From the IMG/VR virus record IMGVR_UViG_2711768043_000005, positions 1-17,778 of that record: a stretch of 17,778 nt of DNA, one strand, 5' to 3'. Each line of letters starts with the position of its first letter. Position 1 is the first letter of the stretch. The DNA is from a virus (taxonomy: Duplodnaviria; Heunggongvirae; Uroviricota; Caudoviricetes). Positions 371 to 17,778 of this stretch are shown here, piece by piece. The position numbers and the translations under genes are program-made. Under the pieces are notes generated by a model. The model saw nothing but the letters and a program-made list of their open reading frames with translations. It made no database searches and was not told the DNA's origin.

Positions 371-384
371 AAACAAAGTTAACA

Positions 385-2196: not shown

Positions 2197-2237
2197 TTAG
2201 CCCCCTCTTAATTGCTGTTGGTCCTCTCAGAACGAGG

Positions 2238-2269
2238 GGAAACAAAAAAGGCCGCATTAAGGCGGCCTT
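2238..2269 (-). terminator. Rho-independent terminator (minus strand) after the 198-aa gene
   Basis: Perfect 8-bp stem AAGGCCGC/GCGGCCTT (2248-2255 / 2262-2269) with a 6-nt loop, followed on the minus strand by a T-run (plus-strand A-run 2244-2249). Confidence 0.6.
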
Positions 2270-2286
2270 GGTAAGGTATAGTTTTT

Positions 2287-2883
2287 TTAAGATAAACTTT
2301 GATTGATATACTCATGACACCCAAAAATAAAGGCGTTTTGTGCATCAATAAATGACTTTTTTTCTTCCGGAGTAAAATACCCTTTTGTAAAACATACTTT
2401 TAGCGCTTTTTGAAGATCTGCCGTCAGGGTTATCAACTTACAACCTTCCTCATCAGGCCTTATTAATAGAAGTAATTTATTTTTACTTATTTCAGCGGCC
2501 TTTATTGGAACTTGAATCTCCTCAGGGAAAACACCCTTAGCCAATATATCCATATTCTTATTTCCGACCAGATGCCATTGCTCAAATGTGCTGGCCAACA
2601 TAATTACGTCTGTCACATGCTCAGCGCCAGCAAAACGTATTTGTTGCGCCAATTCTTTATTAGTATTCAAGTGAGCCTGTAATGTGGCTAAGGCAAAATT
2701 TTCTTTGATTGCCCTGTATGCAACCCAACCAGTTATTCCTGCGGCAATAACGCCTGCAAGAGCAGTAATGAGTGTTTCAAAAGGAAAGGAAGAACTGATT
2801 TCAATTGGCGGTAATTTTTCTATTACCAAGGTCAACTCGCCAGTAGTTTTTTCGAAAGCGTACGGTACGTTTTGCCAAGTCAT
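2287..2883 (-). CDS. Hypothetical membrane-anchored protein (AT-rich insert between Q-like gene and lysis cassette)
   Basis: 198 aa; AGGAGG RBS 4 nt before the ATG; one predicted transmembrane helix (LITALAGVIAAGITGWVAYRAI); markedly lower GC than neighbours; flanked by terminator hairpins on both sides. Confidence 0.7.
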   Translation of the reverse strand: MTWQNVPYAFEKTTGELTLVIEKLPPIEISSSFPFETLITALAGVIAAGITGWVAYRAIKENFALATLQAHLNTNKELAQQIRFAGAEHVTDVIMLASTFEQWHLVGNKNMDILAKGVFPEEIQVPIKAAEISKNKLLLLIRPDEEGCKLITLTADLQKALKVCFTKGYFTPEEKKSFIDAQNAFIFGCHEYINQSLS

Positions 2884-2911
2884 GAAGCCTCCTGAGTTTC
2901 AGAGGAATCAT

Positions 2912-2938
2912 AACAAAAAAACCCGCTCAATGGCGGGC
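2912..2938 (-). terminator. tR'-like terminator downstream of the Q-like gene (minus strand)
   Basis: Stem CCCGC/GCGGG (2922-2926 / 2933-2937) with a 6-nt loop, followed on the minus strand by a run of 7 T (plus-strand A-run 2914-2920). Confidence 0.5.
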
Positions 2939-2989
2939 TCTTAATGTTGTGTTGCTCAGTTCGCTTTAACGTCCCGAGCCTACCACAAT

Positions 2990-3568
2990 TTAAGCACTTT
3001 CTTGCTCACTCTGCAACTTAAATCTGTCGCTATTTGTGCCGAATGCGTCACAAACTGGAGCGTACAGGATCGATTCTGCAAGACTTAGCCAAGTGTCAAT
3101 GCGTCGACGACAGGTGATCAGCGGCCAGTCAGGATGTTTAGCCTGCAGTTCATTGGCCATCTGCAACTTGCTCTTACGAAGACGATACCGGTCAACAATC
3201 ACGCTATAGAGCGATCGGTAGTCATCATTCATCAGTACTGAAGCAATGACACCGTCCACTAACAACCCTTCTTCATCTGAACAGAACGCCAGGCCGCTTT
3301 TATTTTTGCTGTTGAGAATTTCACGCAGGTACGCTTCAAGTTCAGGCTTGGTGATACCCGCTATCTTCATCCGGCGTAGCGCTTCATTGATAGCTGTCTT
3401 GGTGATTTTCCCGGATGCCAGAAGCTGGTTAAACATGTTTCCACCACTACCACCGCCGATATAAGACCAGCGGCCCCACATGCGCAACTTGCCTTGTATC
3501 CAGATACTTTCCAGAGTACGAAGGCGAACCATTTCACCTGATTTGCCAACTTCAGAAGGATTAATCAT
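2990..3568 (-). CDS. Q-like late-gene antiterminator (Phage_antitermQ-type), tentative
   Basis: 192 aa; position directly upstream of a terminator and the lysis genes and directly downstream of a DUF968 gene, as in Qin-type prophages. The call rests mainly on synteny. Confidence 0.5.
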   Translation of the reverse strand: MINPSEVGKSGEMVRLRTLESIWIQGKLRMWGRWSYIGGGSGGNMFNQLLASGKITKTAINEALRRMKIAGITKPELEAYLREILNSKNKSGLAFCSDEEGLLVDGVIASVLMNDDYRSLYSVIVDRYRLRKSKLQMANELQAKHPDWPLITCRRRIDTWLSLAESILYAPVCDAFGTNSDRFKLQSEQESA

Positions 3569-3582
3569 TTAGCATTCTCCAC

Positions 3583-4578
3583 TTACGCCAGTACGCCTAT
3601 TGCCAGCGCACGATCGATAAAACGAAATATCAGCTCCAGCTGGGAGCCATACTTCTCTTCAAATGCCACGGTATCCGCATGCAGCTCGTCGTGATGCTTT
3701 CTGCACAAAGGCAACACAAAGAGGTCATGCGCTTTTGTACCCATTCCACCCTGACCGTGGCCTATCAGGTGGTGGGGATCATCAGCAGGCTTTCCACAAC
3801 ATGCACACGGCTGTGTCTTAACCCAGCGCGTGTACTTTTCATTAACCCAGCGGCGACGTTTCGGGCGTAACATAAAAGACTCCGGCGACTCCGGATCCAC
3901 TTTCAGCGCTAGCACCTTTTTCGCTTTATCCTGGATGATGCTGGTGGCAGGAACCAAAGGCACAAGGTCACTTTCCCGGGTGACAGACGGCACAACAGGC
4001 TTCGGTAATCTCAGAGCCTTACGGGCTGCACTTTCCGGTAAGGCATCCGCCAGGTCATTACGAACCAGCCACCAGCACAGTTCCGGCATTGTCATAACGT
4101 GACTATCATCAAAACCGAGATCCCGACGCACGACAGACAACACCCAGCGAGCACAGTTATCCGTTGCCATTGATTCCAGCCGTTCCGTGAACTGATCGCG
4201 CAGCTGGTTATCGCAGTGCCAGCACAGACGGATTGCGCCCGGAGCGTGTCGCATTGTGGTCATGTTCTCGCTGTGCCAGTCGGAATGAGGCCACTGGCAG
4301 CCTTTTTCACGAAGTAACCAGCTTTCAAGACATTCCACGCCACCAGCACGACGGATCACTGCCTCATTGCGGAACACGGCCCGAACGGCAGGATCATCCG
4401 CCAGCGGTTGTGATGCAGCCGGAACGGCACCACTGGCGAAAGATGAATAACGTTCCGGCTCAGGCTCCAGCAGGACACGCCCCTGCATAAACAGGGGCAT
4501 CAGCTCTGAACCTGGCCTGAACAATACGATCCCCATACGCGGGGCAATTTCAGGGGTCAGTAGTGCTCTCACGGTCAC
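3583..4578 (-). CDS. DUF968-family protein with C-terminal Cys/His (HNH-like) motif, YdfU-like
   Basis: 331 aa; C-terminal CACCGK...HHLIGHGQGG...CRKHHDELH motif; GTG start 2 nt after the KilA-N gene stop. Confidence 0.7.
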   Translation of the reverse strand: MTVRALLTPEIAPRMGIVLFRPGSELMPLFMQGRVLLEPEPERYSSFASGAVPAASQPLADDPAVRAVFRNEAVIRRAGGVECLESWLLREKGCQWPHSDWHSENMTTMRHAPGAIRLCWHCDNQLRDQFTERLESMATDNCARWVLSVVRRDLGFDDSHVMTMPELCWWLVRNDLADALPESAARKALRLPKPVVPSVTRESDLVPLVPATSIIQDKAKKVLALKVDPESPESFMLRPKRRRWVNEKYTRWVKTQPCACCGKPADDPHHLIGHGQGGMGTKAHDLFVLPLCRKHHDELHADTVAFEEKYGSQLELIFRFIDRALAIGVLA

Positions 4579-4579
4579 C

Positions 4580-5389
4580 TCAATGAACGGTATCGAGCAG
4601 CTTTAACAGCTCAGGGAATCGGGATTCGAAGAAGTGCGGCTGCGTCTCGCGCGGATTTGCGGGACTGGTGATGTTCTTGCCGAACATGCAGCCTTTCGCT
4701 GTCAGCGACCAGAATTTTTTGATGTTGTTAATCGCGGTACGGCTGTATCGTTCGCGTTGTTCAACGATCCCCAGCTTCGCCATCTGGTGATATGCCTGAT
4801 TAGCCGTCAGGCGGATACCATACTGTTTCAGCAGTGCACTCAGCGACAGCGTAGGGCGACTTGAGCCATCAGGCGCGTCAGCAGGAGCATCAATGGCATA
4901 GCGTGGTGCCAGATTCGGTAAGCCAACAGCCTCCTGGAGTTTCTGACAGGCCCCAAGCACAGATGAGTTAGACAGGTTTAACTCCCGGCGCATAAAGTCC
5001 AGCAGAATCACGCCAGCCTGCATCTTGTCAGCAGCCTGTCCGGATAATTTTTCAGGTGCGCTGGTTACCATATCGAAAGTACGGATCACCTTCAGATGGA
5101 ATGACGGGCTGATCCACATTGCATAGGCATACACCAGTTCTTTGCAGACATACGTTCCCCGTTCATTTCCCCCATGAATCACACTCACCGGGTCAACACC
5201 CAAATTCTGGGTGTTGGTCAATTCATGAACAAGTTCAACAGTTTGTTGGCTGGAAAGAAACTTTCCTGGCTCCTTGGTTCTGGCATTTGCACCAGATGCT
5301 ACTGCTGCGCGATGCAGATCGTTCAGGCTGTAACGTCCATAAGCATCACGACGAACTTCAATACCATCAATGACCATCAGATTATTCAT
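4580..5389 (-). CDS. KilA-N domain protein (N-terminal KilA-N, C-terminal uncharacterized domain)
   Basis: Start placed at MNNLMVIDG, preceded by AGAGGAG RBS; N-terminal region matches the KilA-N DNA-binding domain pattern by eye. The computed ORF extends 11 codons further upstream with no RBS. Confidence 0.7.
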   Translation of the reverse strand: MNNLMVIDGIEVRRDAYGRYSLNDLHRAAVASGANARTKEPGKFLSSQQTVELVHELTNTQNLGVDPVSVIHGGNERGTYVCKELVYAYAMWISPSFHLKVIRTFDMVTSAPEKLSGQAADKMQAGVILLDFMRRELNLSNSSVLGACQKLQEAVGLPNLAPRYAIDAPADAPDGSSRPTLSLSALLKQYGIRLTANQAYHQMAKLGIVEQRERYSRTAINNIKKFWSLTAKGCMFGKNITSPANPRETQPHFFESRFPELLKLLDTVH

Positions 5390-5408
5390 ACTTCGTTTCT
5401 CCTCTTGA

Positions 5409-5798
5409 TCAGGCGGCTGCACCCGCCGTTTTCTCGTACTTACTGATAGTGATCTCGACCTTCCCTTCCGGGATAACCGGTCCCCACTCCACCAGCATTC
5501 TTTTCACCTGACTGTCGTCTTCCCACACCCCCGCGTGGGTCAGGGCGTCAAACAACGCCTTGTTATAGTTGTCCAGATCGCGGATCCTGTTATCCGGAGG
5601 AAACAACACGATCTCCACTGAAGCAGGTGCCGACGTTGGTTTCGGCAGACGACGTAACTGTTCAACTATTGCTGCGCACGCCGCGCTCTGAAATTTTCGC
5701 CCCGCCGCGCTTATCAGGCTCTTACCTGCAAACGCCCCTTTGTTGGGGTGTCGCCAGTACGTGTTCACGCTGGGCGGGAAAGGCAGGATCAGCTTCAT
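5409..5798 (-). CDS. rusA: Holliday-junction resolvase RusA
   Basis: 129 aa; sequence closely resembles E. coli RusA (conserved RDLDN motif); 4-nt ATGA overlap with the upstream gene. Confidence 0.85.
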   Translation of the reverse strand: MKLILPFPPSVNTYWRHPNKGAFAGKSLISAAGRKFQSAACAAIVEQLRRLPKPTSAPASVEIVLFPPDNRIRDLDNYNKALFDALTHAGVWEDDSQVKRMLVEWGPVIPEGKVEITISKYEKTAGAAA

Positions 5799-6121
5799 AC
5801 TTTCAGGCCCCTCTTATGTAACCAGTGGGTTGCACGCAGCCTGGCGTTTTCCTCACCGGCAAGCAGTGAGCGGATAATCCCGACCGCCTCGCTGTCGTCG
5901 TCCTTCACCGCGGTATGAAGCGTGATGCCCCGGGCCACGCCACGCTTTATCGTGATGACGCCTTTTTTCTCCAGTGCGCGAAGATGCTCCACCGCTGCAT
6001 TCACTGAACGGTATCCCAGCATGGTTGCCACCTCCTGATTGGTTGGCGGGAAGCCACGTTCTTTCTGATAAGAAATCAGCATATCCAGCACCTGCTGCTG
6101 GCATTGAGTTAACGTCGTCAT
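5795..6121 (-). CDS. LexA N-terminal DNA-binding-domain-like winged-helix protein, no S24 peptidase domain
   Basis: 108 aa; residues 1-70 align by eye with the LexA DNA-binding domain (LexA: ARQQEVFDLI...[36 protein letters not shown]; here: QCQQQVLDMLISYQKERGFPPTNQEVATMLGYRSVNAAVEHLRALEKKGVITI). Confidence 0.7.
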   Translation of the reverse strand: MTTLTQCQQQVLDMLISYQKERGFPPTNQEVATMLGYRSVNAAVEHLRALEKKGVITIKRGVARGITLHTAVKDDDSEAVGIIRSLLAGEENARLRATHWLHKRGLKV

Positions 6122-6771
6122 GCCGCCATCTCCCTGACCAGTTTTTCCGCCTGCTGGCGAACCTGCGCCAGAAAGGCCTCACCACATGCCTCAAGTTCAT
6201 CGCGCCCGATATAGCTGATTGCCGATCCCTTCCAGGTCTTATCGAAAACAGCAATAGCACCAGCGAAGAAAGCGCCTGTCGGCACCTGCTTCTCATCCTT
6301 CGGGATAAACCAGACAGGCAGTTCAAAACCAATACGCCCGCGAATAAAAGCAATATGGTCTGCATCTTCCGGCCACCACACTTCGCTGGTGGCAGCTTTG
6401 ATCAGGAAAACATAACGCCCGCCCTTATCACGCATGGCACTGGCATGTTTCATGATGTAACGCATGCCGGTGATGTATTGCCCCTCATGCTGACTGGCGC
6501 GGCTGTATGGGGGATTACCAAAGGCAGCACCTTTAAGCTCCGCAAGACGTTCTGACCAGTCATGCGCCAGCGCGTTGTCTTCCGCCGTGTAATACGCAGC
6601 ACATTTGGTGTTATCACCGTCAGTGAACAGATCCAGAACAAACGGGCCAAACAGGGTGTTAATTCCCCAGAAAATGTTGTCCGGCGTGCGCCACTGATCG
6701 CCCACTTCCTTCAGTTCATGGGCTGGTTTGTTCCGCAGTTCCACCAGCGCCTGGCAATATTTATTACTCAT
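6118..6771 (-). CDS. Phage N6-adenine DNA methyltransferase (Dam-like)
   Basis: FGNPPYS motif (the N/DPPY catalytic motif of amino-methyltransferases). ATG at 6771 forms a TAATG stop/start overlap with the upstream gene; the longer ORF (GTG at 6804) would overlap that gene. Confidence 0.8.
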   Translation of the reverse strand: MSNKYCQALVELRNKPAHELKEVGDQWRTPDNIFWGINTLFGPFVLDLFTDGDNTKCAAYYTAEDNALAHDWSERLAELKGAAFGNPPYSRASQHEGQYITGMRYIMKHASAMRDKGGRYVFLIKAATSEVWWPEDADHIAFIRGRIGFELPVWFIPKDEKQVPTGAFFAGAIAVFDKTWKGSAISYIGRDELEACGEAFLAQVRQQAEKLVREMAA

Positions 6772-7265
6772 TAAGCCCCCACGTAATTCCCTGACAGATA
6801 CCACTCTTCACCCGATGCAGCGCGCTTGCTGCTTTTCCGTAAGCACCGCTCACGACGCACCAGAAAATTGTTTCGTTCTGGCTGGGAGTGGCTTTCACGG
6901 AATGCCGCCATCCACACGGTTGCAGCACGACGGTATAAGCCCCTGGACTCCAGTTCTTCAGCCTGGCGGGTCAGGCACAAAATCACCCGGGTGTCGTTAG
7001 TGCCGACATAGAAATTGCGCACAGGTCTGGTTTCACGAACTGGTTGTGGTTCCGGCTCCTGCGCTCTCTCAGTCAGGCGCGGGAAATGTCTGCGTGTATC
7101 CCCTTCACAACGGTGAGCCACACGCCCACTCTGACGTAACTTGCTTGCTGACTGCAGAACGCGCTGCCGTGAGTAACCTGCAAAAGCATCCGCAATGTCT
7201 CCGGAAGTACACCCCGGATGGGCTTCAATGAATTTCTGAACGTCATTTAACAGACTCATGATCAC
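6771..7265 (-). CDS. Winged-helix plus PerC-like domain putative transcriptional regulator
   Basis: 164 aa; C-terminal segment RGLYRRAATVWMAAF...FLVRRERCL resembles the PerC/Pch family signature (GLWRRAA..W...L.RR..C) as recalled; 4-nt overlap with the upstream O-like gene. Confidence 0.5.
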   Translation of the reverse strand: MIMSLLNDVQKFIEAHPGCTSGDIADAFAGYSRQRVLQSASKLRQSGRVAHRCEGDTRRHFPRLTERAQEPEPQPVRETRPVRNFYVGTNDTRVILCLTRQAEELESRGLYRRAATVWMAAFRESHSQPERNNFLVRRERCLRKSSKRAASGEEWYLSGNYVGA

Positions 7266-8203
7266 CCCCTGAATCCTGCCGGGATCTGGCTGTAGTCCAC
7301 GTTGTCGTAACTGGATTTGAAGTACGGGTCTTCGCGTTTTTCGGTGTACGTGCTTACGGACGGCGATAAGCGCAGGGAAAGCTCATCCCATTTTTCCCGC
7401 AGCTTCGACGGGCTGAGCACGTTACGGCACCAGAACGGATCGCGGCTGACGCGGCTGTACATCTCGCAGATTTGTTTGTGAGTACGACCATCCTGCACAC
7501 ACATCAGGCGAATTTCGTTTGCCCAGGCTGTCCAGTTCGGTTCTTTGGGACGAACCACCTCGCCGTCACATTCGGCAGCCAGCTCGTACAGGGCGATGAT
7601 TTTTTTCCAGAGCCACTGTGCGCAGGTCAAATCATCCTGCGTCCCCCACTGGCGCTTTTTAGGGCTGAATACAACCGCATCAGGATGGCGAGTTAAAAAA
7701 TCCTGTTCATCCGTCTGCGTGTCCGGTTGCGAAGCGTCCGGACGAGAAGGTTTTTTATCTGACGGATCATGTTTTGATTTTACTGACGGATCCCCGCCAG
7801 ATTCTGACGGGTGAAAACCCGCTTTTTTGCCAGATTTCGACGCATCAAATTTTGACGGGTCAGATTTTGATGCGTCAGATTTTGACGGGTCAGAATCTGA
7901 CAGTTGAGAAAATGCCGCTGCCTGAAGCTTCGCAACGTTAAGCTGATAAACATTCGACGCATTGCGGTTACCCTGGCGACGCGCCTTACGCGTTAACCAG
8001 CCTTCTGCTTCCAGCCGTGCGATAGCCGTTCTGACGGTACTCATCCCCGCGCCAATCTGACGGGCAATGGTTTCAATTGATGGCCAGCACACACCTTCGT
8101 CATTACTGAAATCAGCCAGGCGGGCCATAATTGCCACGCTGGATAATTTCATGCCTGACGCTGCGCAACCATCCCATACATAGCCGGTTAATTTAGTGCT
8201 CAT
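7262..8203 (-). CDS. Replication initiation protein, lambda O-like, with internal low-complexity linker
   Basis: 313 aa; N-terminal winged-helix-like region, central SDSDPSKSDASKSDPSKFDASKS linker encoded by a DNA iteron array, C-terminal domain; sits after the cII-like gene as O does in lambda. Confidence 0.55.
   Translation of the reverse strand: MSTKLTGYVWDGCAASGMKLSSVAIMARLADFSNDEGVCWPSIETIARQIGAGMSTVRTAIARLEAEGWLTRKARRQGNRNASNVYQLNVAKLQAAAFSQLSDSDPSKSDASKSDPSKFDASKSGKKAGFHPSESGGDPSVKSKHDPSDKKPSRPDASQPDTQTDEQDFLTRHPDAVVFSPKKRQWGTQDDLTCAQWLWKKIIALYELAAECDGEVVRPKEPNWTAWANEIRLMCVQDGRTHKQICEMYSRVSRDPFWCRNVLSPSKLREKWDELSLRLSPSVSTYTEKREDPYFKSSYDNVDYSQIPAGFRG
7836..7895. repeat. Iteron array (tandem ~15-bp repeats TTTGAYGSGTCAGAT) inside the O-like gene; putative origin of replication
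   Basis: Direct repeats at 7851-7865, 7866-7880, 7881-7895 plus a related unit at 7836-7850; further TGACGG motifs at 7760, 7784 and 7805. Confidence 0.5.
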
Positions 8204-8212
8204 GACCGACCT

Positions 8213-8551
8213 CTATTTCCCTGAATTTACGACGAAACTGTTCGAGCGGACTGAAGCACTCATGCTCATAGCCTTCGCGGAGGTAGATAACCCGTTGTGT
8301 TTCCGGTTCCCAACGAATGACTCTGACGGGCACTCCGTAGTGATCTTTGAACCAGCGGTTAACTTGTCGCAAAGGACTGTCTCCTTCTGCCGGTTGAAAT
8401 CACCCACAGCCCACTCTGCAAAGCTGTGGGTTACAATTTCCCTGTCACCTGGTACATTTACTGCATAGCAATACTCCACCTTCGCTTTTCCACCCGGTAC
8501 AGGAAGCGCAATCAGTTGCGAGCGACGGTAGTGTGTTGTTAAACTGTTCAT
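8213..8551 (-). CDS. Hypothetical protein
   Basis: 112 aa; ATGA start/stop overlap with the upstream cII-like gene and GGAGA about 10 nt upstream; no recognisable domain; an overlapping plus-strand ORF (8196-8468) makes the call uncertain. Confidence 0.4.
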
Positions 8552-9132
8552 GCGTTAGTTTCTCCACAGTCACGACACGCCACGGCGCCCGGAGCTGCAC
8601 ACTCGCGGGCGTCATTACTTTCTGAAATGCAAAAGATTTTGTAGACCAGTGCTGCATGCTCCTGCAGCTTCGAAATTGAGAGATATAGCTCGTCGTTAAT
8701 TGCTGTTTTCTCATGCGGTTCCACTACACCGTCTTCGATTGCTGAACGAATCTGTTTTGAATAACTGCCGATCTGTTCAATGACTTCCAGCAGACGCTGG
8801 TTAATATCGGCGTTGTCCACATCCTCGACGTCAGGAAGAGACACAAATACGCCATTTGCAGACTGCGCCACAGCATCAGCAATGAAGTGAGTGCCACCAG
8901 CACGCTGTAAAACCATTGCCCATCCCAGCGGGAAAATCTGATCGCCATCGGCACGAAGGCGGTTAAATAATGCGCTCTCTGTTACATCCAGCCAGTCAGC
9001 AGCTTCAGCGTAACCCCCCGGCAACGCTGCGATAGTTTTTCTGACAGCTTTCACGTACCACTTAGGCTGTTTTTCTACTTTCCAGTGATGCTTACCCACG
9101 GCTATCTCCTTAAAACTGTGGTTACTTTTCAT
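8548..9132 (-). CDS. cII-like / YdaT-like regulatory protein (start uncertain)
   Basis: Follows the cro-like gene; start placed at the first in-frame ATG (MKSNHSF) since the longer ORF overlaps cro by 80+ nt; family assignment is from memory and tentative. Confidence 0.45.
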
Positions 9133-9370
9133 CTGATGAATCTTTAATCTTTTGAAAAATATCTGGACGTAATTTTTCTTTTGATATGCCAGTGGTCTTT
9201 TCAATGAATATCGAGAGCTTTGCAGGGGGACGCTTTTCTCTGTTCAACCAGTTCCAGACATGTTGTTGCTTTACTAAATGACCGCTGCTGGCTGTGAGCT
9301 TCCGAGCCAATTCTGATTGACCACCAGCCAGAGCGATTGCCTCCGATAAGGCTAATTGCTCAGGTGTCAT
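9122..9370 (-). CDS. Cro-like HTH regulator (YdaS-type)
   Basis: 82 aa; AAGGAGA RBS before the ATG; HTH-like segment GGQSELARKLTASSGHLVKQ; divergent from the CI-like repressor across an operator-rich spacer. Confidence 0.65.
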   Translation of the reverse strand: MTPEQLALSEAIALAGGQSELARKLTASSGHLVKQQHVWNWLNREKRPPAKLSIFIEKTTGISKEKLRPDIFQKIKDSSDEK

Positions 9371-9505
9371 AGCTTTCTCCTTTTTAGGTAGTTAAGTTGT
9401 TACGAGTTGCAAGAATACAACATTAACAACTTTTATCACAACTTTTAGGTGTTGGAAAGCTAAAACATAAAGTTGTAACCTCATCAAAAAAGAGAGGGAT
9501 ATGTT
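9371..9505. promoter_or_regulatory. OR-like operator/promoter region between cro-like and cI-like genes
   Basis: Repeated GTTGT/ACAAC half-sites (AAGTTGT at 9394 and 9471; ACAACTT at 9426 and 9439). Candidate minus-strand promoter TTGTGA (9436-9441) / TATTCT (9412-9417); candidate plus-strand promoter TTGGAA (9452-9457) / TAACCT (9476-9481). Confidence 0.55.
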
Positions 9506-10192
9506 GTGAAAACACTGGCAGAACGATTAAAGATAGGTAGAGAGAAAGCTGGCATGAGCCAAGCTCAACTAGCTGAAAAAATTGGACTTTCACAACAATC
9601 TGTAGCCAAAATAGAGAATGGCGAAACTCTACAACCGCGCAAAATTAAAGAAATTGCAAAAGTTTTAGGTGTATCACAAAAGTGGTTACAACTTGGTATT
9701 GAAGACAACGCATCCATACCTGATCTTGTTGTAAAAGAAGCAGAAAGCACCGCATTAGACCCCGATATTTTCGTAAACATTCCTGTTTTAGATGTCGAGT
9801 TATCGGCAGGTAACGGATGTCTGGCTGAAATAGTTGAATCAGCTATTGACTGGTTTCCGTTAAGAAGAGCAGATTTGAGAAAATCTGGCGTATGTGCATC
9901 TAATGCCAAGATCGTAAAAATATGGGGGAACAGTTTATTACCGGTTCTCAATAATGGAGATCTTGTTGCCGTTGATATTTCTCAAACCGTTCCTATTCGT
10001 GATGGCGATCTTTATGCCGTACGAGATGGTGTATTGCTAAGGGTTAAAATACTTATCAACTTACCTGACGGTGGCTTGATTCTTAGAAGCTTCAACAAAG
10101 ATGAGTACCCAGATGAAATACTCACCTTTGAAGATAGACGAGCCAGAATTCATGTGATAGGTAGGGTATTCTGGTCATCGCGAACTTGGTAA
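9506..10192 (+). CDS. CI-like prophage repressor (N-terminal XRE-type HTH, C-terminal S24 LexA-like peptidase domain)
   Basis: 228 aa; GTG start with AGAGAGGG RBS; HTH (MSQAQLAEKIGLSQQSVAKIENGE); Ala-Gly cleavage-site context (LSAGNG); S24-like Ser (GNSLLP) and Lys (LRVK). Confidence 0.85.
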   Translation: MKTLAERLKIGREKAGMSQAQLAEKIGLSQQSVAKIENGETLQPRKIKEIAKVLGVSQKWLQLGIEDNASIPDLVVKEAESTALDPDIFVNIPVLDVELSAGNGCLAEIVESAIDWFPLRRADLRKSGVCASNAKIVKIWGNSLLPVLNNGDLVAVDISQTVPIRDGDLYAVRDGVLLRVKILINLPDGGLILRSFNKDEYPDEILTFEDRRARIHVIGRVFWSSRTW

Positions 10193-11065
10193 TGCATCGA
10201 AAAGCATTTCTTCAGAAATAATTTTAAGTTTTGCACCATTATCATCCCTATAAGATATAGCCTTTTCGATCTTCCTTCCGTGACTTGAGAATTTCCAATC
10301 ACGGGAGGAAAGCGTCCCAATTACTAAAAAATCCAACTTTTGAGTAATTCCACTACTGATGTTCCCACCAGCATTTTTAATCAAATTTTCAACTACGGCT
10401 CTCTTTCCTGCAACAAAAGTGCCTGTAAGACAATAGGTTTTACCCTCTAACTCTATCGAAGCCCCTACATCAATAGGCAGCCTGGTCGCCAAACCATCCA
10501 CCACCCCACTTTCCAAGTCACATCCTGTGAAGTCTACTAATGCCTTATGTAGAGTTAAACTCTCATCTTCAGTAATAACACCATCTTTAAGAATTTCCTT
10601 TACAAGTGCATAAAGTTTTTTTCCTGGGTAGTTGTTCTTCAAAGCTCCATTTTGCTCAAGCCACCAATTAAGATATCTTATTTCTTCTTGAGTTAAGTTC
10701 CGATCAGCAATTAATCCTTTACATAGTCCATTAAGTAAATGGACATCTACATCCTTGGAGTAAAAATCAATTTCAGGGATATCAAGAATTTCCCTCTGTA
10801 TTTGGAGAAGGCTATTTTTAAGGTCATCACGTTCTTCTGATGTGATTATTCCATCCGCAAGAATATCCGACACCCGTGCTGATAGACTTTTTATAACTCC
10901 ATTATTGATAATCTGCTTTGCTTCAAGTAACCATGTATCTAAGTAAAGAACCTCCTCTTCACGGACAACTCCATCTGCAATGATTCCATCAATGATGCTA
11001 ATCAAGTTAGCAAATAACTTGTCCCGGTTCTGTGTGTAATTAAAAGCGTAAAGCGCGTCTTCCAT
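10175..11065 (-). CDS. Protein with tandem TerB-like ADG-x-IT-x-EE helical repeats and a C-terminal BRCT domain
   Basis: 296 aa from ATG at 11065 (GGAGG RBS 4 nt upstream); four repeats of the form [IL]xDG[VI]ITxEExxxL; C-terminus GKTYCLTGTF...GGNISSGITQKLDFLVIGT...AKLKIISEEMLFDAL resembles the ligase-type BRCT fold; AT-rich; 3' end overlaps the cI 3' end by 18 bp. Confidence 0.75.
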   Translation of the reverse strand: MEDALYAFNYTQNRDKLFANLISIIDGIIADGVVREEEVLYLDTWLLEAKQIINNGVIKSLSARVSDILADGIITSEERDDLKNSLLQIQREILDIPEIDFYSKDVDVHLLNGLCKGLIADRNLTQEEIRYLNWWLEQNGALKNNYPGKKLYALVKEILKDGVITEDESLTLHKALVDFTGCDLESGVVDGLATRLPIDVGASIELEGKTYCLTGTFVAGKRAVVENLIKNAGGNISSGITQKLDFLVIGTLSSRDWKFSSHGRKIEKAISYRDDNGAKLKIISEEMLFDALPSSR

Positions 11066-11099
11066 ACAACCTCCTTTTTTTGATAATCCTTGCACTCCT

Positions 11100-11200
11100 T
11101 GGCTACTCGTTCAAACCACATAAAGTTGTTGACAACATTCAAAACCACAACTAAATTACAACTTAAAGGTGTTAAAACAACGAACAGGCAGGACGCCCAC
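11100..11200 (+). promoter_or_regulatory. OL/PL-like operator-promoter region
   Basis: Candidate promoter TTGACA (11129-11134), 17-nt spacer, TAAATT (11152-11157); operator-like motifs shared with the OR region: CATAAAGTTGT (11120 vs 9468) and ACAACTTwwAGGTGTT (11157-11172 vs 9439-9454). Confidence 0.55.
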
Positions 11201-11267
11201 GAAGTAGCCGCCGGTGGCGTATGAATGACCGGATGATTCGTTAAATACTATGTGTAAGAGAGCGCAA

Positions 11268-11471
11268 ATGAACCGTTATTTCACATGCTCGTTTTGTGGC
11301 GCAAACGAGCTGCAGGCAAAAAAAATCATCGCCAAAGGCGGAAAAGATGAAGTTGCTATCTGCTCTGAGTGCGTAGTCTTGTGTGTCGGGGCATTAATCA
11401 ATATCAGCACAACTATTCAGTTCACACCAAATGAGAATGCGCCTTTAGATGCGCGGAAATCTGGAGGTTAA
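11268..11471 (+). CDS. ClpX-type zinc-ribbon (ZBD-like) small protein
   Basis: 67 aa; YFTCSFCGANELQAKKIIAKGG...AICSECVVLC aligns by eye with the E. coli ClpX N-terminal zinc-binding domain ([32 protein letters not shown]); AAGAGAG RBS. Confidence 0.7.
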   Translation: MNRYFTCSFCGANELQAKKIIAKGGKDEVAICSECVVLCVGALINISTTIQFTPNENAPLDARKSGG

Positions 11472-11479
11472 AGAACAAA

Positions 11480-11755
11480 ATGAAAGTCCAGATTTTAAAC
11501 AATAGTGGTGAAGTCGTTTGGTCATACGACATAGCCGCTCCTGTAGATCAGAGCGGCGATAGCTGGACCAATGGAAAACATCAGATTATGGCTGGAGTTG
11601 TGTTCTCTTTACGCCGTGCTTTAGAACAGGCTGAAGTCTTTCCATCAGACCCTGAATGGAAATGGCCTTTTTCTATTTGTCCAAATTCGGAGAGTACATT
11701 TCAGAAAATTGGTCAGAAAGTCGCACTCGAAGAGCATCAGCCAACTGTTTCCTGA
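11480..11755 (+). CDS. Hypothetical protein
   Basis: 91 aa; GGAGG RBS 8 nt upstream; its 3' end overlaps the convergent 81-aa ORF, so the true stop or reality of one of the two is uncertain. Confidence 0.5.
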   Translation: MKVQILNNSGEVVWSYDIAAPVDQSGDSWTNGKHQIMAGVVFSLRRALEQAEVFPSDPEWKWPFSICPNSESTFQKIGQKVALEEHQPTVS

Positions 11756-11918
11756 TTTTTTCAGGTAACTCGTCGGCATCGCAGAAACAACAACGCTCGA
11801 TCATGTTGAAAGCCGATTCGTAGAACTGTTTTTGCTGAGTGTCGCTGAGACAGGAAAAGAGCGACGTTACGATGATTTTATTAATTGCATTATCAAGTTC
11901 TTTTTCATCAAAAGTCAT
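11673..11918 (-). CDS. Hypothetical protein (antisense to the early-left operon)
   Basis: 81 aa; AAGGAAAA RBS-like sequence before the ATG at 11918; no recognised domain. Confidence 0.45.
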   Translation of the reverse strand: MTFDEKELDNAINKIIVTSLFSCLSDTQQKQFYESAFNMIERCCFCDADELPEKIRKQLADALRVRLSDQFSEMYSPNLDK

Positions 11919-12173
11919 TTGATTTTCCTTTTATGTATACGGGCTTAAAAGGATACCACCGAGCCTGAAGTGGTGAAAAGACAGGCACATAACAGCTAAG
12001 TATTTTCAACCAAAGAGAATCCTTAGCGTTGTGGTGAATGCGGCTCAGCGCACGCGGGTTAAGGTTGAGGCTGACAGTCGACCTTCTGTGGATACCCACC
12101 CGTCTGGTGTGCAACCTTCGCCAGGCACCGGGAGGCACCCGGCACCACAACTTTATGCTGTGTGTAGTCCTGG

Positions 12174-12218
12174 CGGTACCAGTTTGTACCCTTGCTTCCG
12201 GCTGGTACCGTCCTTTTT
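12174..12218 (+). terminator. Candidate intrinsic terminator within a GC-rich non-coding island
   Basis: Perfect 9-bp stem CGGTACCAG (12174-12182) / CTGGTACCG (12202-12210), 19-nt loop, followed by TCCTTTTT. Confidence 0.45.
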
Positions 12219-12355
12219 ACAAAACAGAGAAGAGCATCACCGGACGACGGGCTCATAACCCAATCCATCCGGGCGGCTGCCACCGCAGGTGTTCTTCTCT
12301 GTTTTGTGGAGAAACTAATCGGCCTTGCAGGGTCGATATGATGAGGAGCAGCAAA

Positions 12356-12718
12356 ATGGCTAGCGAACGCAGTACTGATGTGCAGGCATTTATCGGGGAG
12401 CTGGACGGCGGCGTATTTGAAACCAAAATCGGCGCAGTTCTCAGTGAAGTCGCTTCCGGTGTGATGAACACGAAAACCAAAGGTAAGGTCTCACTCAACC
12501 TGGAAATCGAACCATTTGATGAGAACCGTGTGAAAATCAAACACAAACTCTCATATGTTCGCCCGACTAACCGTGGGAAAATTTCCGAAGAAGACACCAC
12601 CGAAACGCCGATGTATGTCAATCGCGGTGGTCGCCTGACTATTCTGCAGGAAGACCAGGGACAATTACTGACTCTTGCCGGTGAGCCTGACGGAAAACTC
12701 CGCGCAGCAGGTCATTAA
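12356..12718 (+). CDS. Hypothetical protein, YfdP-like (120 aa)
   Basis: GAGGAG RBS 7 nt before the ATG at 12356; the upstream in-frame extension to 12038 is Arg/Pro/Cys-rich and lacks an RBS. Confidence 0.6.
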   Translation: MASERSTDVQAFIGELDGGVFETKIGAVLSEVASGVMNTKTKGKVSLNLEIEPFDENRVKIKHKLSYVRPTNRGKISEEDTTETPMYVNRGGRLTILQEDQGQLLTLAGEPDGKLRAAGH

Positions 12719-12783
12719 TATCATTCTTAATTAACTAATTATTTATCTCATCACTGAATATCTTAATATAGTGAGGACTTATT

Positions 12784-13608
12784 ATGTCTCAGAACTTAGA
12801 CGCAACCGCAATTAATCAAATCCATGCCCTTATTTCTGCTCAGGGTGTTAATGAAATTATCAGTAAGATTGGTGCCGATGCTGTGGCATTGCCTGAGAAT
12901 TTCCGCATTCATGATCTGGAAAAATTTAATTTAAATCGCTTCCGTTTCCGTGGTGCGCTTTCCACTGCCAGCATCGATGACTTTACCCGTTATTCTAAAG
13001 ATCTTGCAGATGAAGGCACCCGCTGCTTTATCGATGCTGATAATATGCGTGCCGTCAGTGTGCTTAACCTGGGTACTATTGATGAACCAGGTCACGCAGA
13101 TAACACCGCCACTCTCAAACTGAAAAAGACAGCACCGTTCTCTGCCCTGTTGTCTGTTAACGGCGAGCGTAACTCCCAGAAATCACTGGCAGAATGGATT
13201 GAAGACTGGGCCGACAACCTTGTGGGCTTTGATGCTAATGGTGACGCCATTCAGGCAACAAAAGCGGCTGCGGCAATCCGTAAAATCACGATTGAAGCAA
13301 ACCAGACCGCTGATTTTGAAGATAATGACTTCAGCGGCAAACGCTCCCTGATGGAATCTGTCGAAGCGAAGACCAAAGACATTATGCCAGTGGCATTTGA
13401 ATTTAAATGCGTTCCGTTTGAAGGTCTGAAAGAACGTCCGTTTAAATTACGCCTCAGCATTATCACTGGCGATCGTCCTGTACTGGTTCTGCGCATTATT
13501 CAGCTGGAAGCGGTGCAGGAAGAAATGGCTAACGAATTTCGTGATCTGCTTGTTGAGAAATTCAAGGACAGCAAAGTAGAAACCTTTATTGGTACTTTCA
13601 CCGCCTGA
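12784..13608 (+). CDS. DUF2303-type protein, YfdQ-like (CPS-53 family)
   Basis: 274 aa, acidic; sequence and length resemble E. coli YfdQ as recalled; RBS-like GAGGA upstream. Confidence 0.7.
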
Positions 13609-13620
13609 TTTCATTACTGC

Positions 13621-13642
13621 AAATGCCCCTGCGGGGGCATTT
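13621..13642 (+). terminator. Hairpin, possible weak terminator or RNA processing site after the YfdQ-like gene
   Basis: AAATGCCCC-TGC-GGGGCATTT perfect 9-bp stem with a 3-nt loop; only a short T-stretch follows. Confidence 0.35.
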
Positions 13643-13735
13643 ATGGAAACGTAATTTACTCAATAATCGCCGGATGGTGAGGGATTCTTTTTACCAGAAT
13701 TCAGCGCGGTGCAGCGCATATACGTGGAGAACAAA

Positions 13736-14272
13736 ATGTCATTTATTAAAACTTTTTCCGGGAAGCATTTTTATTATGACAGGATAAATAAAGACGACAT
13801 CGATATTAACGATATCGCGGTTTCCCTTTCAAATATCTGTCGCTTTGCCGGTCATCTTTCGCACTTCTACAGCGTCGCCCAACATGCGGTTCTTTGCAGC
13901 CAGCTGGTGCCGCAGGAATTTGCTTTTGAAGCGTTAATGCATGATGCAACAGAAGCGTATTGCCAGGACATTCCCGCACCACTGAAACGCCTTCTTCCTG
14001 ACTATAAACAAATGGAAGAAAAAATAGACTCCGTAATCCGTGAGAAATACGGATTACCCCCAGTTATGAGTACGCCCGTGAAATATGCCGATCTCATCAT
14101 GCTGGCAACCGAACGCCGCGATCTCGGGCTTGATGATGGCTCTTTCTGGCCTGTACTGGAAGGTATCCCGGCAACAGAGATGTTCAACGTGATTCCACTG
14201 GCACCGGGCCATGCCTACGGGATGTTTATGGAACGCTTTAACGAGTTATCGGAGTTACGCAAATGCGCATGA
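13736..14272 (+). CDS. HD-domain phosphohydrolase, YfdR-like (5'-deoxynucleotidase-type)
   Basis: 178 aa from ATG at 13736 (GGAGA RBS); metal-binding H...HD motif (ALMHDATEAY) and upstream His residues. Confidence 0.7.
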   Translation: MSFIKTFSGKHFYYDRINKDDIDINDIAVSLSNICRFAGHLSHFYSVAQHAVLCSQLVPQEFAFEALMHDATEAYCQDIPAPLKRLLPDYKQMEEKIDSVIREKYGLPPVMSTPVKYADLIMLATERRDLGLDDGSFWPVLEGIPATEMFNVIPLAPGHAYGMFMERFNELSELRKCA

Positions 14273-14625
14273 ATGTTTTCGAAATGGAAGGGTTTCTTCG
14301 TGGGAGATGTGTACCGCGAGATCTGAAAGTAAATGAAACAGATGCTGAATACCTGGTGCGTAAATTCGATGCGCTTGAAGCTAAATGTGCAGCACAGGAA
14401 AACAAAGTAATACCAGTGTCAACTGAACTGCCACCAGCAAATGAAAGTGTTTTGTTATTCGATGCTAACGGAGAAGGCTGGCTAATTGGTTGGCGTTCTC
14501 TCTGGTACACCTGGGGACAAAAAGAAACCGGAGAATGGCAGTGGACATTTCAGGTCGGGGACCTTGAAAACGTCAATATCACTCACTGGGCAGTAATGCC
14601 AAAAGCACCGGAGGCTGGAGCATAA
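14263..14625 (+). CDS. Hypothetical phage protein (Trp-rich C-terminus, possibly DUF551-like)
   Basis: 120 aa; start overlaps the upstream gene stop; compact operon spacing. Confidence 0.55.
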   Translation: MRMNVFEMEGFLRGRCVPRDLKVNETDAEYLVRKFDALEAKCAAQENKVIPVSTELPPANESVLLFDANGEGWLIGWRSLWYTWGQKETGEWQWTFQVGDLENVNITHWAVMPKAPEAGA

Positions 14626-14930
14626 TGACCACTTTTACCGACAAAGAACTGATTAAAGAAATTAAAGAGCGTATCAGCAGCCTTGACGTGCGAGACGATA
14701 TTGAGCGCCGTGCTTATGAAATCGCACTCCTATCTCTGGAAGTAGAACCAGATGAACGCGAAGCTTATGAATTATTCATGGAAAAGCGTTTCGGTGACTT
14801 AGTAGATCGTCGGAGAGCAAAAAACGGCAATAACGAATACATGGCATGGGATATGACTCTCGGTTGGATCGTCTGGCAGCAACGAGCTGGTATCCATTTT
14901 TCAACAATGTCACAGCAAGAGGTGAAATAA
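14625..14930 (+). CDS. Hypothetical phage protein
   Basis: 101 aa; ATGA-type overlap with the upstream gene and 1-nt overlap with xis. Confidence 0.55.
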   Translation: MTTFTDKELIKEIKERISSLDVRDDIERRAYEIALLSLEVEPDEREAYELFMEKRFGDLVDRRRAKNGNNEYMAWDMTLGWIVWQQRAGIHFSTMSQQEVK

Positions 14931-15280
14931 TGGAGCCATACAGCCTCACACTCGATGAGGCCTGTCATTTTCTCAAGATATCCAGACCGACTGCCATTAA
15001 CTGGATACGCACAGGGCGTCTTCAGGCAACACGCAAAGATCCCACTAAGAATAAATCTCCTTACCTCACAACACGACAAGCCTGCATTGCGGCTCTTCAG
15101 TCTCCGCTGCATACTGTCCAGGTGAGCGCGGGTGATGGCATAACAGAGGAAAGAAAATGTCACTCTTCCGCAGAGGTGAAATATGGTACGCCAGTTTCAC
15201 ATTGCCGAACGGTAAAAGATTTAAACAGTCTCTTGGAACAAAGGACAAAAGGCAGGCGACAGAACTCCATGACAAGCTAA
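14930..15280 (+). CDS. xis: Excisionase-like HTH protein (AlpA/Xis type)
   Basis: N-terminus [28 protein letters not shown] is a typical excisionase/AlpA HTH; immediately upstream of and overlapping int by about 124 nt in another frame; 3' end uncertain. Confidence 0.55.
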
Positions 15281-16320
15281 AGGCTGAAGCATGGCGGGTC
15301 AGCAAACTTGGTGAAATACCTGATATAACGTTCGAGGAAGCGTGTGTCAGGTGGCTTGAAGAGAAAGCACATAAAAAATCACTGGACGATGACAAAAGCC
15401 GGATCGGATTCTGGCTTCAACATTTCGCAGGAATGCAACTAAGAGACATTACTGAATCAAAAATTTATTCAGCAATGCAGAAAATGACGAACCGGCGTCA
15501 TGAGGAAAACTGGAAACTCAGGGCAGAAGCATGCAGAAAAAAAGGGAAACCTGTTCCAGAATACACGCCAAAACCAGCGTCCGTTGCAACGAAGGCTACG
15601 CATCTTTCATTTATAAAGGCCCTACTAAGAGCCGCAGAGCGTGAATGGAAAATGCTGGATAAGGCACCAATTATTAAAGTGCCTCAACCAAAGAATAAAC
15701 GGATCCGCTGGCTGGAGCCCCATGAAGCACAAAGGCTGATTGATGAATGTCCGGAGCCATTAAAGTCTGTTGTTGAATTTGCACTGGCAACAGGCTTAAG
15801 ACGCTCGAACATCATCAACCTTGAATGGCAACAAATAGATATGCAGCGCCGGGTGGCATGGATAAACCCGGAAGAGAGTAAATCAAACCGCGCAATTGGC
15901 GTTGCGCTGAATGATACTGCATGTCGCGTATTGAAAAAACAAATCGGGAATCATCACCGTTGGGTATTTGTGTACAAGGAAAGCTGTACCAAACCAGACG
16001 GAACGAAAGCGCCAACAGTAAGGAAGATGCGGTATGACGCAAACACAGCCTGGAAAGCGGCGCTGAGACGGGCTGGTATTGATGATTTCAGATTTCACGA
16101 CTTGAGACACACCTGGGCAAGTTGGCTGGTTCAAGCCGGAGTCCCGTTGTCAGTTTTACAGGAAATGGGAGGCTGGGAGTCTATCGAAATGGTTCGTCGA
16201 TATGCTCACCTTGCACCTAATCACCTTACCGAACACGCACGGCAAATAGACTCGATCCTGAACCCATCGGTCCCAAATTTGTCCCAGTCAAAAAATAAGG
16301 AAGGTACTAATGATGTGTAA
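15157..16320 (+). CDS. int: Tyrosine-type site-specific integrase
   Basis: 387 aa; C-terminal catalytic region [39 protein letters not shown] (R..H..Y signature); abuts the tRNA 3' end. Confidence 0.9.
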
Positions 16321-16334
16321 CTTATTGATTTTAA

Positions 16335-16410
16335 TGGTGCCGATAATAGGAGTCGAACCTACGACCTTCGCATTACGAATGCGCTGCTCTACCAACTGAG
16401 CTATATCGGC
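16335..16410 (-). tRNA. thrW: tRNA-Thr (anticodon CGU)
   Basis: Minus-strand 76-nt sequence GCCGATATAGCTCAGTTGGTAGAGCAGCGCATTCGTAATGCGAAGGTCGTAGGTTCGACTCCTATTATCGGCACCA with D-loop, anticodon loop TTCGTAA, T-loop GGTTCGA and CCA end. Confidence 0.9.
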
Positions 16411-16524
16411 CCTGAAAGGACATGTTCACAAACGTGAATCACGGTGGACAAGGTTAAAACTAACCGGGCGATGCGTCAATGGCCTTGTGAATCAAATGGC
16501 TACTTTTGCATCACCCGGTTTTAT

Positions 16525-17778
16525 TTACGCACGAATGGTGTAATCACCAATGCCGATCCACTTGTAAGTGGTCAGTGCTTCCAGCCCCATTGGGCCACGC
16601 GCGTGGAGTTTTTGTGTGCTTACCGCCACTTCCGCACCCAGACCAAACTGGCCGCCGTCGGTAAAACGCGTAGAGGCGTTAACGTAAACAGCGGACGAAT
16701 CCACTTCGTTAACAAAACGCTGGGCGTTGCGCATATCGCGGGTCAGGATCGCATCGGAGTGTTGTGTGCCGTGTTCACGAATATGGGCGATGGCATCGTC
16801 AAGATCGCTGACGATTTTGACGTTCAAATCTAATGACAGAAACTCATCGTCATACTCTTCGGCTTTAACAGCAACCACCTTCGCAGGGCCTGCCTGCAAC
16901 TGCGCCAGTGCAGCTGCATCTGCGTGTAATGTCACGCCGCTTTCCGCCATTTGTTTGCTTAATGCGGGCAGGAAGCTATCGGCGATGTTTTTATTCACCA
17001 GCAACGTTTCAACCGTATTACATGTGCTCGGACGCTGAGTTTTCGCGTTGACGATCACTTTTAATGCTTCAGCGATCTCTACACTTTCATCAACGTAAAT
17101 ATGGCATACGCCTATACCACCTGTGATCACCGGGATTGTCGACTGTTCACGGCACAGTTTATGCAAACCAGCGCCACCACGCGGGATCAGCATGTCGATG
17201 TATTTATCCATACGCAGCATTTCACTGACCAGCGCACGGTCAGGATTATCAATCGCCTGCACGGCACCCGCCGGTAAGCCGCAGGATTTCAGGGCGTCCT
17301 GAATCACCGCCACCGTTGCAGCGTTAGTGCGACACGTTTCTTTGCCACCGCGCAGGATCACCGCATTACCGGTTTTCAGGCACAGCGAAGCGACATCAAC
17401 CGTCACGTTCGGGCGCGCTTCATAAATCACGCCAATAACCCCCAGCGGTACGCGACGACGCTCAAGACGCAGGCCGCTGTCCAGTACGCCGCCATCGATT
17501 ACCTGCCCCACCGGATCGGCGAGGTTGCACACCTGACGTACATCGTCGGCAATGCCTTTCAGCCGTGCGGGCGTCAGTGCCAGACGGTCAAGCATCGCTT
17601 CGCTAAGGCCATTGGCTCGCGCGTCAGCAACATCCTGGGCGTTAGCGTTGAGGATGATTTCGCTTTGTGCTTCCAGTTCATCGGCGATTTTTTCCAGCAC
17701 GCGATTTTTTTCGCGGCTGGAGAGTTGCGCTAATTTATACGAGGCTTGCTTCGCGGCAATGCCCATTTGTTCCAGCAT
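16525..17778 (-). CDS. proA: Glutamate-5-semialdehyde dehydrogenase (gamma-glutamyl phosphate reductase)
   Basis: 417-aa ORF starting exactly at the window end ([21 protein letters not shown]...) and ending ...GDYTIRA; recognised as enterobacterial ProA. Confidence 0.95.

Follow-up and report, generated by a model that had tools for sequence, protein, structure and literature searches.

Two RNA modules, a probable STnc100/PasD-type small RNA and a conserved three-way-junction RNA, in the non-coding island upstream of yfdP in an SfV-type lambdoid prophage

The window analysed here, a stretch of 17,778 nt that makes up positions 1 to 17,778 of the viral record IMGVR_UViG_2711768043_000005, carries an island of roughly 415 nt immediately upstream of the yfdP gene, and the question is what this island encodes. 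An earlier note, made from the sequence alone, had described it as a single element without a convincing coding frame and had proposed a small RNA gene, a leader of the terminator/antiterminator type or a protein-binding site. Our analysis leads to a different partition. The island probably consists of two separable and independent RNA modules on the plus strand, namely a small RNA of the STnc100/PasD type that ends in an intrinsic terminator (module A, 12028-12218) and a second RNA that would form only upon read-through of this terminator (module B, 12214-12312). All coordinates are those of the window, and all features lie on the plus strand unless stated otherwise.

The basic features that had drawn attention to the locus were found again. 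The content of guanine plus cytosine (GC) is 0.56-0.585 over 12000-12299 as compared to 0.38-0.45 on both sides. The perfect 9-bp stem CGGTACCAG (12174-12182) / CTGGTACCG (12202-12210) is followed by TTTTT at 12214-12218, and the inverted repeat ACAAAACAGAGAAGA (12219-12233) / TCTTCTCTGTTTTGT (12293-12307) is perfect over 15 bp with 59 nt between its arms; in a repeat search it extends to 25 nt at 84% complementarity. By our own arithmetic, about 0.002 perfect 15-bp inverted repeats within approximately 100 nt are expected by chance in 17.8 kb. The distance from the right arm to the yfdP start codon, given before as about 50 nt, is 48 nt, with the ATG at 12356 and not at 12357. Folding of 11990-12360 with RNAfold resulted in -159 kcal/mol (z = -5.8), and none of 100 shuffled sequences folded equally well.

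For the left two thirds of the island, the proposal of a small RNA gene holds: the region 12028-12218 aligns end to end with the STnc100 model, ends in the terminator that had been noted and is probably a divergent member of the STnc100/PasD family of prophage small RNAs. The Rfam model RF02076 (STnc100) aligns with 12006-12221 over its full length (model positions 1-206) with 39.5 bits and an E-value of 5e-7 in an 801-nt search run in E-value mode. The conserved 5' block GGUGAAU is present at 12033-12039, and the 22-mer CACCGGGAGGCACCCGGCACCA at 12126-12147 equals the Rfam consensus. This 22-mer occurs in more than 120 viral contigs, which yielded 80 distinct cores. A covariance model (R1) was built from 27 diverse module A cores, from which the subfamily of the window was deliberately excluded. 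R1 nevertheless aligns the core of module A (12028-12151) end to end with 53.5 bits (E 2e-11), a score close to that of ST64B (54.8 bits) and below that of the HK639 copy (84.7 bits), and it finds no match in HK022.

The core is built from the helices P1 (12028-12036 with 12143-12151), P2 (12039-12052), P4 (12103-12109 with 12119-12125) and P5 (12128-12142, inside the invariant 22-mer). R1 misplaces P2 in the subfamily of the window, and P2 (UGCG/CGCA) was therefore assigned by eye. Among 85 distinct copies, 92.4% of the cells of the four nested helices are paired, as compared to 79.5% in column shuffles and 39-46% with slid partners, and 16 pairs have changed on both sides, figures that are somewhat inflated by the fitting of the alignment to the model.

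In addition to the nested helices, there appears to be a structural feature that is new for the STnc100 family. In the window, AAGGUUG at 12061-12067 is complementary over 7 bp to CAACCUU in the loop of P4 (12112-12118), a pseudoknot that was assigned by eye. Throughout the family, 6-10 nt just after P2 are complementary to the P4 loop by means of 40 different pairing sequences. At least 6 bp with the own P4 loop can be formed in 80% of 82 copies, versus 12% with shuffled loops and 25% with loops of other classes. This pairing is missing from the consensus structure of RF02076 as printed by cmscan. A few variants of the family arrange the two pseudoknot helices in nested order.

The core is followed by a linker (12152-12171) that is unpaired in the fold of the full region and contains the conserved block UGCUGUGUGUAGUC. 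ST64B, phiNP, Buttiauxella and Enterobacter wuhouensis all share this block, while the terminators differ and, in phiNP, the core as well. Such conservation is the pattern that would be expected of a seed or a protein-binding site, and no site complementary to UGCUGUGUGUAGUC was found within the window. Module A then ends in the intrinsic terminator (12172-12218), an 11-13-bp GC-rich stem followed by UUUUU, identified by RNAfold and from the sequence; at this position, ST64B and other genera also possess a terminator, with an unrelated sequence. Immediately 5' of module A, RNAfold predicts a further hairpin (P0, GCUAAG-U-AUUUUC / GAGAAU-C-CUUAGC, 11995-12027). Since a hairpin also stands at this place in ST64B, with another sequence, the transcript is likely to start upstream of P1.

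What is known of the relatives fits a small RNA. In EDL933, 11 copies of the STnc100 family are expressed, one of which was confirmed by Northern blot, and the relatives accumulate as discrete terminated RNAs of approximately 160-210 nt (PMC5331693). The Hfq-bound small RNA EcOnc27 overlaps an STnc100 copy downstream of stx2B (PMC12711010). PasD1 and PasD2 need Hfq for their stability and have many partners in RIL-seq data, obtained by ligating and sequencing interacting RNAs (PMC8550237), and PasD and STnc100 have been described as structurally homologous (bioRxiv 10.64898/2026.05.13.724894).

The genomic settings of the family are diverse. In 25 of 84 distinct copies, a sigma-70-type promoter ends 1-14 nt before the closing helix, versus 2% of random positions. 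Some copies are flanked by the genes of the antiterminator Q and of the holin (for instance HK639, 44778-44981), others downstream of cI as in the window (L080), and the IMG/VR contigs L057, L026, L018 and L010 carry tandem arrays of three to six copies, each with a terminator. Between the STnc100-type RNA of HK639 (L123) and the holin gene there is a second conserved non-coding stretch with its own terminator (44980-45165, ...GGUGGUUCUCCUGAACC...AAUAGUCACUCAUUAGCCCGCC...), which is also found ahead of the holin gene in other loci of one context group of the family. Other structured RNAs, closed by the same helix GUUGUGG, stand in place of module A in mEp460 and phiNP. Divergent relatives (mEp460, L233, 2340-2500; phiNP, L234, 2310-2460; L080; L060) possess (C/A)AGUGCUCUC upstream of this helix, which resembles the core of boxA (GCUCU).

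The inverted repeat belongs to the second module, where it is, in the predicted fold, the middle of the closing helix. According to RNAfold and covariation, module B is a three-way-junction RNA, consisting of the closing helix of 25 bp including G-U pairs and the T-run (12214-12238 with 12288-12312), helix A (12240-12244 with 12268-12272) and hairpin B (12273-12286). When 24 diverse copies with long stem are aligned, 96.1% of the cells are paired and 10 pairs have changed on both sides, none of 500 shuffles was as good, slid controls reached 35-50%, and covariation is present in all three helices. The comparison of homologs suggested in the earlier note thus gave conserved and covarying pairing for both modules. 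The T-run of the terminator opens all 24 copies, and the sequence of the terminator hairpin itself varies widely. Since the closing helix starts with this T-run, it can form only on read-through transcripts. As a near-perfect duplex of 25 bp (at least 20 bp being expected of an RNase III-type substrate) that forms only past the terminator, it is predicted to be cleaved by RNase III.

Module B is independent of module A, since many phages, among them mEp460 and several Stx2 phages, share only the region corresponding to 12171-12400, and in mEp460 the RNA upstream of it differs. More than 120 viral contigs contain the 23-nt core ACGGGCUCAUAAYCCAAUCCAUC. In at least 15 genera this core is invariant, whereas all three flanking helices vary by compensatory substitutions. 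A looser 19-mer is found in the genomes of about 23 enterobacterial species from the genera Escherichia, Shigella, Citrobacter, Enterobacter, Kosakonia, Leclercia, Klebsiella, Raoultella, Mixta, Erwinia, Pantoea and others. Nine matches of the 19-mer in other phyla share nothing beyond the 19-mer itself and were set aside as chance. One copy of module B is located in a contig labelled Chryseobacterium, a label that we suspect to be wrong. The Rfam scan proposed before, which gave the STnc100 match for module A, returned no family for module B (weak microRNA-precursor and hairpin-ribozyme noise was far below threshold). Moreover, our full-text literature searches on tRNA-like elements or initiator-tRNA mimics in prophages and on yfdP/yfdQ yielded no description of module B.

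These properties also bear on the other two roles that had been considered for the inverted repeat. A terminator/antiterminator switch does not fit, as the repeat takes in only the U-tract and does not compete with the terminator hairpin. A site at the DNA level, either a protein operator or a recombination site, might be suggested by a perfect palindrome-like repeat of 15 bp near an immunity region, and by the operator-like 15-mer ACAACTTTATGCTGT at 12147-12161, which matches 9438-9452 and 11158-11172 in 12 of 15 positions. However, the repeat shows the covariation of an RNA helix when phages that differ in immunity type are compared, its recurrent G-U pairs are compatible with the plus strand only, and a covariance model of module B (R2) scores 112.7 bits on the plus strand and 40.8 bits on the minus strand. 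The resemblance of the 15-mer is probably a coincidence, since the 15-mer is composed of the conserved P1 strand and the linker and is kept in phages with other operators. A DNA site is therefore very improbable, and the repeat closes a separate conserved RNA that is also found without module A and without yfdP.

The most peculiar property of module B is its partial likeness to tRNA. Comparison with metZ of E. coli K-12 revealed that CGGGCUCAUAACCC (12248-12261), which lies within the invariant core and comprises three G-C pairs and the loop CUCAUAA, is identical in 14 of 14 nt to the anticodon stem-loop of the initiator tRNA, with the two outer stem pairs being mismatched. Klebsiella phages possess this core together with the two inner helices, and here a stem of 6-7 bp (GGCCUG / CAGGCC) closes them, after which A or G and then CCA follow, so that the stem resembles an acceptor with an NCCA end. 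This form is positioned between Q and the lysis genes; in phage GZ7 it occupies 16059-16135. According to our reading of the upstream flanks, it begins in most copies 6 nt past the 3' end of a tRNA gene, which is tRNA-Asn or tRNA-Arg in the two annotated Klebsiella phages. One contig contains both forms of module B.

It could be argued that module B is nothing but the inert remnant of a phage tRNA gene of the Met or Ile2 type (anticodon CAU) and that the inverted repeat is an accident of its decay. The identity of anticodon loop and stem with tRNA would fit such an origin, as would the location of the Klebsiella form in tRNA gene arrays and its acceptor-like stem with NCCA. Against this, the invariance of the core in at least 15 genera together with compensatory changes in the flanking helices indicates selection on the fold. 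Furthermore, the closing helix has been lengthened to 20-25 bp, hairpin B carries structured expansions, and neither a D arm nor a T loop is left. We consider an inert remnant quite improbable. The anticodon-like loop rather suggests, and we hold this loosely, that module B is a decoy or ligand for something that reads the initiator anticodon loop; candidate readers may be a VapC-type host anticodon nuclease, MetRS, TilS or the ribosomal P site. A tentative proposal, to which we give only a small chance in this complete form, is that module B represents an undescribed class of phage small RNAs, a D-arm-less mimic of initiator or Met-tRNA that is excised by RNase III or by tRNA-processing enzymes and acts as decoy or ligand.

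Several observations weigh against the interpretation of the two modules as small RNA and tRNA mimic. The 39.5 bits of module A do not reach the RF02076 gathering threshold of 47 bits, so that no match is reported in gathering mode. A promoter of its own was not found for module A, neither in a promoter scan nor by eye (best 7-8 of 12 matches), and since this copy lacks one, a lysogen with repressed PL, the putative early-left promoter, may make little of it. A pseudoknotted and nearly invariant core is unusual for a plain base-pairing small RNA and hints at another role; besides base pairing, this core, which in some copies sits at the +1 of late promoters, may bind a protein or the polymerase. 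E. coli K-12 is of no help, as its prophage CPS-53 retains yfdP and has lost the whole island, which makes K-12 transcript data uninformative. With respect to module B, a true tRNA is rejected by ARAGORN, which makes no call at this place in the window or in 33 other loci, and by the Rfam tRNA model, which does not match even at E-values up to 10. The likeness to tRNA lies solely in the loop, the three G-C pairs, the NCCA end and the gene position.

Is it possible that the region simply codes for a protein? An ORF (open reading frame) of 12038-12718 is open and in frame with yfdP, it stays open in 33 of 37 close relatives, and PGAP annotates at this place in E. coli FORC_031 nothing except a pseudogene, a 'frameshifted hypothetical protein' at 12031-12341 that spans both RNA modules. 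The ORF could accordingly be read as an N-terminally extended YfdP or as a separate small protein. However, a comparison of the translated region 12038-12355 with Pfam and PHROG gave no match, and the ATG at 12038 sits within the conserved RNA block GGUGAAUGCGG. In ST64B the corresponding frame closes after 7 codons while the RNA fold is retained, and 4 of 37 near-identical relatives carry frameshifts or stops, 1-nt indels among them. The substitutions track helix pairing and not codon position. In addition, yfdP has a strong ribosome-binding site of its own (GAGGAG, 12344-12349) ahead of the ATG, and yfdP of K-12 starts at the equivalent ATG with unrelated DNA upstream. The absence of a convincing coding frame was therefore rightly noted before; we regard a coding function as extremely improbable and the PGAP pseudogene as probably an annotation artefact. 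Between module B and the ribosome-binding site, RNAfold predicts a small hairpin (12318-12337), which is replaced by a hairpin of another sequence in ST64B, phiNP and other genera.

How the two modules are transcribed follows from their surroundings. The only good plus-strand promoter found upstream of the island is TTGACA-17-TAAATT at 11129-11157. It is surrounded by ACAAC...GTTGT repeats, with which the intergenic region of cro and cI is filled as well, and because of these shared operator-like repeats we infer that it is the repressor-controlled early-left promoter PL. The order on the plus strand is cI, PL, two small ORFs, the island, yfdP, yfdQ, yfdR, yfdS, yfdT, xis and int, with 0.87 kb between PL and module A and 1.06 kb between PL and module B. 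On balance, the island is likely to be a non-coding part of the early-left transcription unit of the prophage. About 17 nt after PL begins a conserved RNA of approximately 60 nt with two hairpins (leader L, 11181-11240), a 23-mer of which occurs in more than 120 viral contigs and the second hairpin of which covaries. In the upstream variants that we inspected, which belong to many different immunity types, leader L follows a promoter. In place, size and two-hairpin build it recalls putL of HK022 (PMC9378689), and it shows no sequence similarity to put of HK022 or HK639. In the gene-free left-operon leader of phiNP (L234, 2225-2300) there are T-arm-like strings, GGTTCGATTCC and GTTCAATTCGG, which may be further tRNA-derived pieces.

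This arrangement gives weight to another explanation, according to which the whole island serves the control of transcription in cis. Module A and its terminator would bar unmodified polymerase from yfdP-xis-int, and only polymerase made resistant to terminators, for example by the put-like leader L, would pass; module A would then be without a function in trans or would itself act on the polymerase. In favor of this, the island is located between PL and the first conserved gene of the left operon, and the interval from PL to yfdP (740-890 nt) contains no annotated gene in ST64B and phiNP. Phage LLS, which in its early-left operon most resembles ST64B and phiNP, has no N homolog, and for this group of phages the use of a put-like RNA has been guessed (PMC12315714). 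Moreover, many copies of the module A family are flanked by a promoter and a terminator and precede lysis genes. However, the relatives of module A accumulate as discrete terminated RNAs, which indicates that module A does not suppress its own terminator, and a self-sufficient antiterminator at constitutive late promoters would express lysis genes in lysogens. Similarity of the modules to known put RNAs was not found either: putL of HK639 is unrelated in sequence, R1 finds nothing in HK022, and neither module is a two-hairpin RNA of approximately 70 nt near an early promoter, as would be expected of an HK022-type put. Furthermore, the right operon contains no paralog of leader L, module A or module B; the lone match there, a 14-nt stretch of the GGAGAAAC type at a gene junction, looks like a ribosome-binding site. 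Control in cis as the whole explanation is thus possible, albeit doubtful. It is only partly a rival, as the roles of a barrier and of a small RNA are compatible.

Taking these points together, we still prefer the reading as small RNA followed by a read-through module, for which the following course of events can be proposed. Since this copy lacks its own promoter, module A would be transcribed from PL or from further upstream, probably as part of a longer PL-driven transcript, and be trimmed on its 5' side. Polymerase that stops at 12218 would leave an RNA ending in a hairpin and a U-tail, the standard 3' end of Hfq-type small RNAs, and by analogy with the Hfq-bound relatives this transcript might act as a small RNA in trans. 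Polymerase that reads through would produce the 25-bp closing helix of module B, and a cut by RNase III could then separate module A from the yfdP-xis-int mRNA and at the same time set free a small three-way-junction RNA on which an anticodon loop like that of the initiator tRNA is displayed. In the Klebsiella form, a similar product might be excised by RNase P and the enzymes of tRNA 3'-end processing instead.

The source of the DNA can be assigned as well. The window ends with an integrase gene (15157-16320) and a tRNA-Thr gene (16335-16410), after which proA follows; it is therefore derived from an SfV-type lambdoid prophage at thrW. The region 11900-12400 is 100% identical to Shigella phage SfV and has matches in prophages of 2864 out of 5426 complete E. 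coli genomes; in 1362 of the 2864, 80% or more of the region is present. The gene of a cI-type repressor is located at 9506-10192. Between this gene and PL, an ORF on the minus strand (10175-11095) is inserted, which encodes 306 amino acids with a C-terminal BRCT domain (phrog_3989) and is not found at the corresponding place in SfV or FORC_031. The first gene after PL (11250-11471) specifies a protein of 73 amino acids that contains a ClpX-type C4 zinc finger (PF06689, E 1e-10), and a 91-aa ORF (phrog_3195, 11480-11755) follows that is annotated by PGAP and in the SfV record. The 3' end of the latter shares 83 nt with an 81-aa ORF on the minus strand (11673-11918), which has a full-length match to phrog_3311 and a good ribosome-binding site; PGAP and the SfV record annotate the plus-strand gene only. 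A clear promoter for this antisense ORF was not found, and upstream of it, at 11974-11955, there is a hairpin with a T-run on the minus strand.

If correct, these assignments are of interest in several respects. Module A would carry a known, functionally obscure family of prophage small RNAs into the early-left operon, and the covarying pseudoknot argues for more than seed base-pairing in this family. Module B seems to represent a tRNA-mimicking RNA motif that has not been catalogued. It is widespread and strongly conserved in enterobacterial lambdoid phages, over half of the complete E. coli genomes that were searched contain it, and the exact copy of the initiator-tRNA anticodon loop makes a role as tRNA mimic or decoy directly testable. 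Leader L and the island are concrete candidates for the control of early transcription in the N-less phages SfV, ST64B, phiNP and LLS, which was left open for LLS in a recent paper (PMC12315714). The locus also illustrates that annotation pipelines mislabel the island as a frameshifted pseudogene.

Compared with known systems, module A is closest to STnc100 (RF02076), PasD1 and PasD2 of enteropathogenic E. coli and EcOnc27/sRNA103 of enterohemorrhagic E. coli, with which it has the two conserved sequence blocks, the order of helices, the 3' intrinsic terminator and the location in a lambdoid prophage in common. In contrast to these relatives, its P2 and pseudoknot strands differ in sequence, and it lies without a promoter in the early-left operon downstream of cI, whereas they are found near Q, stx or lysis genes. 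Like StxS and the lambda 6S RNA, which extend from pR' to tR', some copies of the family span the distance from a promoter +1 to a terminator between Q and holin (HK639). The copy in the window is located outside the late region, however, and no relation in sequence or structure was seen in what was tested. The put RNAs of HK022 and HK639 are likewise structured; they, too, are located upstream of terminators in the early-left leader of a lambdoid phage without N. In contrast to them, modules A and B are approximately 0.9-1.1 kb away from PL, and a terminator that is functional in the relatives comes after module A; the put-like candidate in the window is leader L and not one of the two modules.

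Module B shares with tRNA genes and tRNA-like elements the exact initiator-tRNA anticodon loop on three G-C pairs and, in its Klebsiella form, an acceptor-like stem that contains G2:C71 and C3:G70 and continues into A or G and CCA, within an array of tRNA genes. Unlike a tRNA, it has neither D arm nor T loop, and an asymmetric internal loop is located below the three G-C pairs. Mimicry of an anticodon arm has a precedent in the thrS operator. The closing helix, finally, recalls the retroregulation of lambda by sib/tI, in which a long duplex next to a terminator forms only on read-through transcripts, as well as the RNase III site in the lambda N leader: the duplex of module B also includes sequence adjacent to a terminator, would arise only upon read-through and is part of the PL transcript. 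In contrast to sib/tI, which lies beyond int, module B is located upstream of the first gene of the left operon, and its duplex closes a conserved three-way junction instead of a simple hairpin.

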